Shown here one piece after another: positions 1,636 to 5,419 of a stretch of DNA of 45,210 nt (its first letter is position 1; each line of letters begins with the position of its first letter). The stretch lies in the NCBI GenBank assembly GCA_033764315.1, contig JANRJA010000217.1, positions 1-45,210 of the forward strand. Direction: 5' to 3'. The notes below the pieces were generated by a model that was not told where the DNA came from, did no database searches, and saw only the letters and a program-made list of their open reading frames with translations. A program made the position numbers and the translations under genes. Source of the stretch: Oculatellaceae cyanobacterium bins.114 (GTDB lineage: Bacteria > Cyanobacteriota > Cyanobacteriia > Elainellales > Elainellaceae).

Positions 1636-1760
1636 CTCGGAATAGAACAAACAACCCGAAAACCGATGTTGTTGTTACGATTGTCGCGCGCGTTCCTGTT
1701 GCGATTAGCGGAGCGGCAGTTCCTCGGATTGTTGTTCCACGAACCGCCGCGCAGGAGGCG
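1636..1760 (-). repeat. DGR template repeat (TR)
   Basis: 125 bp ungapped match to 3300-3424 with 12 mismatches, all at TR sense-strand adenines. It has 11 AAY codons when read in the target frame (RGGSWNNNPRNCRSANRNRNARDNRNNNIGFRVV). Confidence 0.97.
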
Positions 1761-1779
1761 GGGTTGCCCTACCCCTTCT

Positions 1780-2844
1780 TCAAAGTCTGTGCCTGACGAA
1801 GGCAAGATCACTGAATATCTGTTTGCGGAGTTGCCAGGTGTCGCCGTGCTTGAGGTGTGCTGCCCAACTTTGCAGAGATTGCTGAATCTCAAGCGGTGTA
1901 ATGGTTCCTTCAGCATAGTCGTCTTGCATTGTTTTGAGACGCTTTCTAGCATATCGAAGGTTTTGATTACGGACTCGAATGTGAGTTAAAAAAACACGAA
2001 ATCCAAGAAAATTTGTGCCTATTTTAGTGGCAAATAATTGACTTTTAATCGGATGAATTTTTAGTCTCAAAGTACTGAGATAGTCTTCAACCGCGATACG
2101 AACATCTGCCAAGAATGCTCGATCGTTACTGAGAAATGCAAAGTCATCTACATAGCGAATATAAGGTTTAACCTTAAGCGTTTCTTTGACGAAATGGTCA
2201 AATCCACTGAGATAGAAGTTGGCAAAAAATTGACTGGTTAAGTTACCAATGGGCAATCCAACTCGACGTTGAACAGGTGTGAGTAAATCATCTCCGGAAA
2301 AATAGTGAATAACTGATTCTTGAGGATTGCTGGCATCAATGATGGTATCAATTAACCAAAGCGTCTTTAAACACTTAATTTTTCGTCGAATTAATGATTT
2401 TAGAATTTCGTGATCGATGCTAGGAAAGTATTTACTGATATCACATTGAAGAATGTAATCGTGATTCCGAACAAATCGAGTAAATCGCTGTAATGCGCGA
2501 TGAGAACCAAACCCTAATCGATTGGCATAGGTATTAAGAATCAAGCCCTTTTCTAAAATTGGAGCGATGATATTACAAAGCGCATGATGAACCACTCGAT
2601 CGCGATAAGGAGCGGCAGAAATCAAGCGACGCTTGGGTTTACGAATTTGAAATGTTTTATAGGAACCTGGAATATAGGTTTTGGTTTCTAGCTCTAATTG
2701 AAGTTGGATTAATTCAGCTTCCAGGTTGTGATTGAAGGCTAAGACATTATCTCGAAATCGTTTTCCTTTCTGGGCATTCCGGGCAGCTTGCAAAAGATTG
2801 GAGAAATCAATCACTTGATGCCAGAGGTTGCCATATCGTTTCAT
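1780..2844 (-). CDS. DGR reverse transcriptase
   Basis: 354 aa RT with [31 protein letters not shown] (the DGR-type SQ motif) and YVDD. No maturase or endonuclease extension. Adjacent to avd and TR. Confidence 0.97.
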
Positions 2845-3179
2845 TTTTGTTTTTGTTGTTTAATCCAACTGCCCAAGTCAGCCCCAATCAAATTAATCAG
2901 TTTGCTGATATATTCGTATCGTTGATCAGAGATTAACGAAAAGTCAAGCAAAAGTCGGGTCTGGTATCGAAGAATGGTAAGATGGGGGTTAAGAGGTTCT
3001 AAAATAATTAACCTTTCTTTGGTGTATTGAGCAACAATTAACTGGTCTAGAAAATCATACAGTTCAGAAATGATTCTGTCACCTAAATTAAATTTATGAT
3101 CTTTAGGCAAACGATTTAAGATGGGAACATACCACTTGATTAAGTCATAGGTTTTTTGAATAATAGGCAGATCATTCAT
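2841..3179 (-). CDS. avd: DGR accessory variability determinant Avd (four-helix bundle)
   Basis: 112 aa, [36 protein letters not shown]...[13 protein letters not shown] at 3179; its stop overlaps the RT start (ATGA at 2841-2844). Confidence 0.93.
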
Positions 3180-3213
3180 AACAGTTTGAGATCTCTCCAA
3201 AAAATAAAAAATT

Positions 3214-3234
3214 TGATCGCGCTCTGCGCGATCA
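3214..3234. promoter_or_regulatory. Hairpin/cruciform downstream of the VR, candidate DGR target-recognition element
   Basis: TGATCGCGC-TCT-GCGCGATCA: perfect 9-bp stem with a 3-nt loop, ~55 nt 3' of the target stop codon. Confidence 0.65.
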
Positions 3235-3289
3235 GTCAGAAGGATAATAGAATAAAACTGAAAAGAGAAACAGGAAAAGAGGGTAAAGT

Positions 3290-5419
3290 TTAAAAAGTCC
3301 TCGGAATAGAACAAACAACCCGAAAACCGAAGTTGAGGTAACGATTGTCGCGCGCGCTCCTGAGGCGATTAGCGGAGCGGCAGAACCTCGGATAGTTGAC
3401 CCACGAACCGCCGCGCAGGAGGCGATAATTTGTCTCGTCTGATTTTGGAGCCATCTTTGTCGTTTCCTCAGTCCAGGCGATCGCCCCGTTCTGCTTCAGC
3501 AAATCTGGCTTGTTGGCATAGCTGCCATACCATTGGTCAGCGCACCACTCCCAAACATTGCCGTGCATGTCGTAAAGCCCAAAGGCATTGGCAGGGAAGT
3601 TGCCAACATCGGTGGTTTGCTTTCGATATTGTCCTTTAGGTGCATTGCCATAGGTATAGTTGCCATCATAGTTCACCAGATCAAAAGTAATGGTTTCGCC
3701 AAAATGAAATGGCGTAGTCGTTCCGGCGCGACAGGCATATTCCCATTCGGCTTCTGTGGGCAGGCGATAAGGTTTATTTGTTTTACGAGAGAGGCGAGCG
3801 CAAAACTCCACGGCTTCATCCCACGATACCTGCTCGACCGGACGCTTTGCCCCTTTAAAGTTTGCTGGGTCAGAATTGAGATCTAGCTTGATCTTGGGCA
3901 ACCCTGCAACCTGCTTCCACTGAGCCTGCGTGGCGGCAAACTTACCCAGCCAAAATTCTGGCACCTTGACGCGATGCTGGGGACGTTGCGAATCTGTCCA
4001 TGTTTCTGCATCCTCCTGGCTGACTCCATGTCGGGTTGCTTCTTGGATGACGGTGTCACGCTCTATGTCTGCCGTGCCCATCAAAAACTCCCCCGCCGGA
4101 ATTTTAACCATCTCCAGCGTTACGCCATTGCCTAGATCTTCTACAAAATATTCAGCACGTTTGCGATCGCGGTTTTTCTCTTCACCTTTAGCGTTGACCG
4201 TTATCACCTCAAAATTAAAATAGGTAGCTGGGTCAGGTTGAGGAGCAGGAGGGGCGATCGGCTCAGATTGAAGGGTTTGTCCCAATACACTGGCTTCAAC
4301 TGGTGCTACATCTTCATCTCGTAATTTCAACATTTGCTGAAACCGTTTGAGATCTTCACGGGTTTCAGAGCTAAGTGTGCCTTCGTGTTCAACTGCTTCA
4401 ATACAGGCTTGCTCATATTCCCGCAAGTTGTGCTCATACTCCCGGTAGGGCTGCAACACTTCATCTTCGATCGCAGTTGCAACATCAGGCAATAAACGCA
4501 GTTCAGTTTGCCTGCGTTTAAGGATGCGGCGACCCACAATGGTGATGGCTCTATTTCTGATGTTCTTCTCGACTTCCTTGCGATACACCAGCTTAGGATC
4601 ACCCAATGATGCCTTAGCCAGCTTAATTTTATAGCCCTCCCTCACGGTGTAAATTTCTGGCTTCATAGCGGGTGCAGCTTCGTGTACTTTGCTGCGGGCA
4701 TACTCGTGCAATTCATTAACAGAAATTGCCCCATCGTTATCTTGATCAGCCGCTCCAGTCGTTAGTCCCTCTACTAAATAGCGTGTGTAAACCGACAAGG
4801 TTGCGTCTGGCTGTTCTAGTGAATATTGCGTTGCGGTGGATGATGTCAGAACGGCTCGACCTTCCTCCCCTAGTTGATTTCGGATATCGGCTGAAATATC
4901 TTCAACTGGGGCTGACTTGACGACTTCTTCCTTCCCTAATTGATTTCGGATATCGGCTGAGATATCTTCAACTGAGGCTGATTTGGCAGGCATATCTGTC
5001 GCAAATGCACCGCTGAAGCAACAATCTAAAATGACAACCTGTCGCTTGGCTCGACTGCCACTCATAAACTCGTGAATCGTGACCGCAGACACCGCTGTAG
5101 ATTTGACCAGTTCTCCTCGTGGTGTGGTGCGAGTGCGGGGGGTAGCAAAATACAGCCTACCTTGGTCATCTTTGATGCCATGCCCAGAAAAAAACAACAC
5201 CACCAGATCATCTTTGGCGCGATCGCTAAAAACCATTTCGATCGCCAACTGCATGTCTTGAGGTTCGGGATTAAGCAATTCCTGAACCCTATCAAACTTG
5301 CCAATTTGAGGATCTTCTAATGCCTGCTTTAAGGCTGCTACATCTTGTGAAGCACCCGGCAGGGCATTCAAACCTGGTTCATACTTGCTGACACCAATCA
5401 GTAATGCCACCTTTGCCAT
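3290..5419 (-). CDS. DGR target protein: N-terminal caspase-like peptidase C14 domain, helical linker, C-terminal FGE-sulfatase (C-type lectin fold) domain carrying the VR
   Basis: ALLIGVSKY, FFSGHG (catalytic His), ILDCCFSG (catalytic Cys); RLPTEAEWEYACRAG, NAFGLYDMHGNVWEW, RGGSW...GFRVV. Confidence 0.95.
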   Translation of the reverse strand: MAKVALLIGVSKYEPGLNALPGASQDVAALKQALEDPQIGKFDRVQELLNPEPQDMQLAIEMVFSDRAKDDLVVLFFSGHGIKDDQGRLYFATPRTRTTPRGELVKSTAVSAVTIHEFMSGSRAKRQVVILDCCFSGAFATDMPAKSASVEDISADIRNQLGKEEVVKSAPVEDISADIRNQLGEEGRAVLTSSTATQYSLEQPDATLSVYTRYLVEGLTTGAADQDNDGAISVNELHEYARSKVHEAAPAMKPEIYTVREGYKIKLAKASLGDPKLVYRKEVEKNIRNRAITIVGRRILKRRQTELRLLPDVATAIEDEVLQPYREYEHNLREYEQACIEAVEHEGTLSSETREDLKRFQQMLKLRDEDVAPVEASVLGQTLQSEPIAPPAPQPDPATYFNFEVITVNAKGEEKNRDRKRAEYFVEDLGNGVTLEMVKIPAGEFLMGTADIERDTVIQEATRHGVSQEDAETWTDSQRPQHRVKVPEFWLGKFAATQAQWKQVAGLPKIKLDLNSDPANFKGAKRPVEQVSWDEAVEFCARLSRKTNKPYRLPTEAEWEYACRAGTTTPFHFGETITFDLVNYDGNYTYGNAPKGQYRKQTTDVGNFPANAFGLYDMHGNVWEWCADQWYGSYANKPDLLKQNGAIAWTEETTKMAPKSDETNYRLLRGGSWVNYPRFCRSANRLRSARDNRYLNFGFRVVCSIPRTF
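3300..3424 (-). repeat. DGR variable region (VR) at the 3' end of the target gene
   Basis: Encodes RGGSWVNYPRFCRSANRLRSARDNRYLNFGFRVV; differs from TR only at TR adenines. Confidence 0.97.
4861..4985 (-). repeat. In-frame tandem duplication (66-bp period) inside the caspase domain
   Basis: 4861-4919 vs 4927-4985 has 5 mismatches in 59 bp; the protein repeats KSAxVEDISADIRNQLGxE twice. Confidence 0.9.

Follow-up and report, generated by a model that had tools for sequence, protein, structure and literature searches.

A cyanobacterial diversity-generating retroelement that probably diversifies the sensor domain of an EACC1-like/caspase gene pair

Fusions of a caspase to a domain of the C-type lectin (CLec) type are already in print as targets of diversity-generating retroelements (DGRs), as are links between DGRs and the small protein EACC1, and a DGR alone is ordinary. 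The orthocaspase-CLec DGRs of cyanobacteria, such as those of Acaryochloris marina (ABW25400.1) and Fremyella diplosiphon (BAY93026.1), are listed in Table S1 of PMC7517822. Targets of clade 5 DGRs have been proposed as immune sensors (PMC10907252, PMC8195603), and DGR CLec sensors are stated as not experimentally characterized (PMC10907252). The partners of EACC1 include DGR-linked proteases, and KrEACC1 is cleaved by its caspase into a C-terminal piece that is toxic and permeabilizes liposomes, with the cut predicted at Asp49 (PMC12642450). The literature searched, with subscription journals mostly outside it and its DGR-sensor part running from 2024 on, contained no experiment that puts an EACC1 system diversified by a DGR to the test. 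Here we describe a locus in a 45,210-nucleotide stretch of DNA from Oculatellaceae cyanobacterium bins.114 (contig JANRJA010000217.1; hereafter the window), in which an intact DGR targets a caspase-CLec gene that is itself preceded by a gene for an EACC1-like protein. We consider it probable that the sensor diversified by this DGR belongs to a cell-death module of EACC1 and caspase that serves as a variable-sensor defense.

The locus resembles the cyanobacterial orthocaspase-CLec DGRs (PMC7517822; RT clade 5E of PMC10907252) in its reverse transcriptase (RT) from a monophyletic cyanobacterial group, its avd gene, its template repeat (TR), its variable region (VR) in a C-terminal CLec domain, its N-terminal caspase, and the CLec paralogues found elsewhere in the genome. 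It is unlike the accounts of those DGRs, which propose signaling or ternary systems with VMAP and, in the parts covered, draw no link to an upstream EACC1. With the EACC1-caspase systems (System 4 of PMC7159879; KrEACC1-KrAvs12, PMC12642450) it shares a small 5′ gene, a caspase of the NF047832 type, and a swappable C-terminal domain; unlike them, it belongs to a divergent cyanobacterial branch, and its sensor is a DGR-mutated CLec with no Avs or STAND ATPase. Like the BPP-1 DGR, it has adenine-specific TR/VR differences, paired initiation of mutagenic homing elements (IMH and IMH*), a downstream hairpin, avd, and an RT that matches PDB entry 8ub7, and like Treponema TvpA it uses the CLec fold. 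It differs from both in being chromosomal, in having a predicted cytosolic protease rather than a tail fiber or surface lipoprotein as its target, in its gene order (target-avd-RT-TR), and in a hairpin with a 3-nucleotide loop lying 56 nucleotides from the stop codon.

The signature that defines the element is exact. All of its parts lie on the minus strand, with the TR, holding 28 adenines largely in AAC/AAT codons, at positions 1636 to 1760 and the VR, which covers codons 666 to 707 of the target, at 3300 to 3424. The two align ungapped over 125 nucleotides with 12 mismatches, every one at an adenine of the TR sense strand (8 A>T, 2 A>G, and 2 A>C); with adenine making up 28 of the 125 TR bases, the chance of this is P = 1.7e-9. 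The resulting residue changes from TR to VR are N674V, N676Y, N679F, N686L, N688S, N694Y, N695L, and I697F, and recomputation returned exactly the alignment, the 12 positions, and the 8 residue changes given in the preliminary description of this DNA. Mutation of TR adenines can reach no stop codon in the 41 full codons examined, and by our calculation it permits ~5e15 protein variants.

The cis-acting elements around the repeats are also in place. Homology between TR and VR continues for 7 nucleotides past the repeat with two non-adenine differences of the IMH/IMH* type, which on the target side fall in an IMH-like 3′ end that includes the stop codon (3290 to 3299); by sequence, differences of comparable kind occur in three related loci (L118, L039, and L125). 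A DNA hairpin with a 9-bp stem and a 3-nucleotide loop (3214 to 3234) begins 56 nucleotides past the target stop and is followed by a run of T; it also scores as a terminator, making it a candidate cruciform plus terminator. GC-rich hairpins of similar kind lie 3′ of most related VRs, and hairpin-dependent DGR targeting is known from BPP-1 (PMC3240598). Beyond the TR, positions 1488 to 1635 hold IMH* and the 3′ spacer of the DGR RNA, which is conserved and has a structure supported by covariation over 13 loci, where 22 of 35 predicted pairs have compensatory changes, a count drawn from related sequences and not a significance test. Similarity of the window to one relative (G011) stops at 1488. 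A promoter scan gave chance-level results, with 10 found against 6.7 ± 3.1 expected.

The RT gene (1780 to 2844; 354 amino acids) is an open frame with the GxxxSQ and YxDD motifs of the DGR clade, present as S204-Q205 and as YVDD at residues 231 to 234. The avd gene (2841 to 3179 from its ATG; 112 amino acids), likewise open, meets it in an ATGA overlap of the avd stop and RT start, and its product scores above the cut-offs of PF22296 and NF033474 (128.8 bits for the latter, cut-off 80). The best PDB match of the RT, at 177 bits, is 8ub7, which we take to be the BPP-1 RT; a group II RT reaches 55 bits and a retron RT 27. Against the group II model TIGR04416 it scores 127 bits, with a cut-off of 300 and a score of 402 for the genome's own group II RT; it stays well under the cut-offs of the retron and DRT (defense-associated RT) families and lacks the group II-type motif G..QG...SP. 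A quick tree built from 41 RTs places it in a 10-row cyanobacterial clade (support 99) nested in a 14-row DGR clade (SH-aLRT 97), separate from the other 27 rows. Four phage RTs in the 14-row clade were taken as DGR references, and no annotated retron was among the 41 rows; L118 was left out for its frameshift, L177 and L181 gave no match, and L176 duplicates L007. The RT thus groups with DGR RTs, and every feature tested backs the earlier assignment of the locus to a complete DGR of the mutagenic retrohoming type with RT and avd intact. The locus is a genuine, intact DGR in which all trans- and cis-acting parts are present. A plasmid of Microcystis aeruginosa (NZ_CP046974.1) carries an RT 70% identical to that of the window and is a possible vehicle of DGR transfer.

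Retrohoming has occurred here since the locus diverged from its relatives. Where TRs differ at non-adenine sites, the window VR follows its own TR at 6/6, 15/15, 31/31, 22/22, 21/21, and 24/24 sites in six comparisons, and the tracking holds for both partners when the window is set against L118 (6/6 and 6/6) or L117 (31/31 and 31/31). TRs evolve slowly, as the window and L118 templates have 6 non-adenine differences between them and the third positions of their avd genes are 65% identical. The preliminary description had further taken the lack of non-adenine drift as a sign of recent or ongoing activity. This argument proved weak: related DGRs with a deleted RT (L039, 20 adenine mismatches and 1 other) or a frameshifted one (L118, 17 and 0) have signatures just as clean, and current activity is therefore not established.

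The same observation favors the possibility that the DGR is intact but dormant and that its VR is a fixed, selected allele, a reading compatible with the explanation we prefer and a serious one, though we lean against it. A relative of the same genus (G001, genome 100% complete) retains a gene of the caspase-FGS type whose VR departs from the window TR at 12 adenines and at a single other base, though that complete genome yielded no RT, avd, or TR, and a perfectly matching yet invariant VR has been reported elsewhere (PMC10907252). The DNA just upstream in this relative is only 79% identical to the window, and a REP-transposase gene (above the NF047646 cut-off) follows the target where the hairpin and DGR would be; the most fitting reading of the relative's VR is as an allele that came from a closely related template and was then frozen. 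Against dormancy, all components are unbroken here, whereas mobile elements often damage such cassettes (L039, L119, and contig C187 of this genome), and the relative holds a different adenine-only allele of the same template type, which means that the template lineage gave at least two outputs.

REP-associated (Y1) transposases were seen at the avd/RT position or right after former targets at L003:4160-4967 (contig C187), L039:8150-9295, L119:3622-4767, and L120:8650-9427, and L039 and L119 have the same deletion but differ in their target genes. On contig C200, a caspase-TPR gene without a DGR is followed by a similar gene too, so the association is not DGR specific. At L119, the VR of the target at 4875 to 6770 fits the TR of a second DGR in our genome, on contig C102, with 7 non-adenine mismatches, better than the adjoining TR (22 over 125 nucleotides), which suggests that machinery and targets are shuffled.

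The target gene (3290 to 5419; 709 amino acids) encodes a caspase joined by a helical linker to an FGS/CLec domain that ends in the VR, with PF00656 at residues 3 to 255 and PF03781 at residues 436 to 702. The caspase (C14) domain (4625 to 5419) has the catalytic residues His80 and Cys134, invariant in 56/56 aligned caspases, and passes NF047832 ("caspase, EACC1-associated type") with 167 bits against a cut-off of 140. An AlphaFold2 model of the protein has a pLDDT of 83.8, and Foldseek returned TvpA (2y3c; ranked third, E = 2.9e-15) and MALT1 (E = 3e-10). Linker residues 262 to 400 match no Pfam family, and their structure matches in the ESM Atlas are other caspase fusions.

Upstream of the target, with its stop codon 12 nucleotides before the target start, lies a gene (5432 to 5809) for a small protein of 125 amino acids, a putative latent pore-forming effector. 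Here the preliminary description fell short: its account of the DGR stood, but the EACC1-associated type of the target caspase and the upstream gene had been missed, and the system runs to 5809, past the 5419 at which it had been ended. We think it very likely that the 125-residue protein is a divergent EACC1-like protein, its link to the tested KrEACC1 running through family relatives. A profile search yielded 389 representatives, of which 150 were listed; the scan covered 111 of these, and the 39 omitted were mostly partial matches. Among the 111, 25 match PF19953 (EACC1) at E ≤ 0.01, 7 of them over the cut-off, and one of the passing proteins (P0139) is 47% identical to ours. In the ESM Atlas, clusters bearing EACC1 matched with a feature score of 0.91, and a cluster with an EACC1 share of 93% matched with a TM score of 0.66; a general fold search returned generic ferredoxin-like matches alone (best Z, 7.5). 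The AlphaFold2 model has the order beta-alpha-beta-loop-beta-alpha-beta-beta-alpha, with lower confidence in loop residues 51 to 60; D48 and K56, along with G54, G59, G60, and G64, are invariant in 43 close homologues. A complex prediction for the protein with two caspase domains reached a median of 0.31, close to the mark of 0.32. With 1452 homologues in all, this common cyanobacterial "hypothetical" family is probably a branch of EACC1 that Pfam mostly misses.

The gene neighborhoods of the family also bear on this assignment. In a census of 79 genome loci, the best of 238 relatives (those found were cyanobacteria), a gene for an EACC1-associated caspase lies directly downstream of the 125-residue homologue in 75/79, and 12 of these 75 partner caspases end in FGS. 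When 41 of 66 partner C-termini were scanned, 17 had a recognized family, of ten kinds, and 24 had none; the domains include Hsp70, TPR, WD40, GUN4, EAL, L12, periplasmic-binding, and FGS. A constant pair with a swappable C-terminal end is the pattern of EACC1 systems (PMC7159879, PMC12642450), and it is this pairing, together with the PF19953-passing relatives and the Atlas match, that leads us to call the protein EACC1-like. The combination of an EACC1-like gene, a caspase-FGS gene, and an intact DGR recurs in L117 (Pseudanabaena sp. FACHB-1998; 15 adenine and no other TR/VR mismatches over the core) and in L125. DGR-linked pairs with a damaged RT are L118, whose frameshift is possibly an assembly error, and L039, where a Y1-transposase-like gene takes the place of the deleted RT. 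L046 has the pair with no adjacent DGR, and its VR shows 11 adenine and no other mismatches against a TR on another contig; L136, with the same VR, was counted once with it.

Two further loci of our own genome belong beside this census. Contig C200 (L004:3436-5848) has a second EACC1-like gene, 78% identical to the first, before a caspase-TPR gene, and thus the same effector pair with a different sensor. Contig C106 (L005:3680-6205 and 9395-9778) has a caspase-GUN4 gene, whose product narrowly misses the NF047832 cut-off, and ~3 kb from it a Pepco gene.

These results suggest a mechanism of four steps. In the first, RT and Avd would copy the TR RNA, misread its adenines, and overwrite the VR, randomizing up to ~16 codons of the CLec tip without introducing stops; adenine-specific rewriting of the VR is a past event at this locus, and its mechanism is established from BPP-1. 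Judging from its fold, the CLec domain would then bind a ligand that most likely comes from an invader (a phage protein or glycan, for example), and this binding may cluster or unlock the fused caspase with its His80 and Cys134. By homology to the tested Ktedonobacter system, the caspase would cut the loop that joins strands 2 and 3 of the 125-residue protein (approximately residues 48 to 60), where the conserved D48 and K56 are candidate cut residues; cleavage after basic residues has been reported for orthocaspases (PMC5756287). The freed C-terminal part would form membrane pores and kill the cell, limiting spread to kin.

Several points weigh against this picture. Ligand, cleavage, toxicity, expression, and phage protection are putative for all cyanobacterial members, and there is no NTPase switch here, unlike in the tested Avs12 system. 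Direct Pfam, NCBIfam, and PADLOC scans of the 125-residue protein gave nothing useful and no PF19953 match, and 86/111 of its scanned relatives likewise have no such match. The original definition of EACC1 includes a patch of small residues in a central transmembrane helix (PMC7159879); our protein has the invariant glycines G54, G59, G60, and G64 as small residues, but its hydrophobic stretch is weak (maximum 19-residue hydropathy, 1.15) and is modeled as a strand. Of the 12 caspase-FGS fusions in the census, 10 have no adjacent DGR, and a DGR RT was found in only 2 of the 9 genomes of these 10, which indicates that the module persists without diversification. A private 22-residue insertion next to Cys134, discussed below, may affect the caspase, and roles in homeostasis and differentiation have also been argued for orthocaspases (PMC5756287, PMC7517822).

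The last of these points leads to an alternative that we consider unlikely, namely, that the diversified CLec serves signal tuning rather than defense, binding endogenous ligands or selecting substrates for a stress or differentiation orthocaspase, with the 125-residue protein as a regulator or adaptor. Signaling has been proposed for cyanobacterial DGR targets that include orthocaspase-CLec fusions (PMC7517822), and the partner caspases of the census are also fused to Hsp70, GUN4, EAL, and L12, which look nondefensive. However, the sole EACC1 put to the test forms pores once cleaved (PMC12642450), rapid gain and loss together with the swapping of sensors fit conflict systems, and diversity so massive and random is difficult to account for if the ligand is a fixed self molecule.

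It is less probable still that the caspase is impaired or altered by the insertion, the target then being a binder or decoy while a paralogue such as the caspase-TPR of contig C200 cleaves EACC1. The insertion is an in-frame tandem duplication (4861 to 4985; period of 66 nucleotides, or 22 amino acids, 1.9 copies, 91% match) in the loop after the catalytic cysteine, and it is private, being a gap in all 27 other rows displayed of the 56-row caspase alignment; moreover, the genome has 4 caspases of the EACC1-associated type and 2 EACC1-like genes. Yet the duplication keeps the frame, falls in a loop of low pLDDT in the target model, and leaves the catalytic dyad intact and NF047832 above its cut-off. 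The idea that the locus is no DGR at all, and that a sequence duplicated by chance or copied by gene conversion lies next to an RT of the group II intron, retron, or DRT type, has the weak, sub-threshold RT matches to those models in its favor and is refuted, with next to no probability left to it, by the adenine-only pattern (P = 1.7e-9), the Avd score, the RT motifs and clade, the hairpin, and the spacer RNA.

The setting of the cassette is chromosomal, between ureB and ureC in a genome of 6.64 Mb (90.7% complete). Dispersed genomic repeats that are not DGR specific lie on its ureB side (1170 to 1480; 54 BLAST matches on 29 contigs) and its ureC side (5900 to 6040; 96 matches on 68 contigs, with an inverted copy at 40815 to 40908). 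Between ureB and ureC, the gene content differs in the four relatives read (L128 to L131), and ureAB and ureC are ~480 kb apart in G001; with gene content varying in this way, no empty insertion site can be defined. Contig C102 (2000 to 20000) carries the second DGR, with its own TR, three CLec targets that match it, and an RT 64% identical to that of the window; by eye, its neighbors are of the MoxR/VMAP type, and a phage-type integrase adjoins it. The window VR departs from the C102 TR at 26 non-adenine sites, so there is no cross-targeting between the two DGRs, and no remote targets of the window TR were found in the genome as assembled (90.7% complete). CLec paralogues on contigs C110 and C187 keep their hairpins and each have 23 non-adenine mismatches to the window TR and 23 and 29, respectively, to the C102 TR; to judge from these sequences, they appear to be retired targets. 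No MoxR, VMAP, vWA, or STAND NTPase domains were found at the locus among open reading frames scanned across the window. Elsewhere in the window, genes for Uma2 nucleases, XisH/XisI, and PemK/MazF toxin-antitoxin proteins and a TPR gene fragment lie downstream of ureC (7932 to 12966), and the sole Rfam match, 5_ureB_sRNA, is antisense within ureC (6338 to 6624, minus strand). A heptamer tandem repeat of 15 copies (43472 to 43577) is presumably of the short-tandem-repeat type common in cyanobacteria.

A broader proposal, to which we would give only a little less than an even chance, is that the locus represents a minimal anticipatory immunity, in which one intracellular lectin-fold receptor, with a repertoire made by the DGR (~5e15 possible variants), would directly gate both a caspase and an EACC1 pore akin to gasdermin, no NTPase being involved, and useful alleles would be frozen when Y1/REP transposases remove the machinery, as in the same-genus relative. 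If true, this would offer a direct selection for what cellular DGR sensors recognize, because the output of the two genes is life or death. The locus bears on the function of DGR-diversified CLec proteins in nonpathogenic bacteria, as it joins such a sensor to an effector family with a demonstrated killing mechanism. With its compact, intact cassette, natural alternative alleles, and EACC1-like effector, it makes the immune-sensor idea directly testable.

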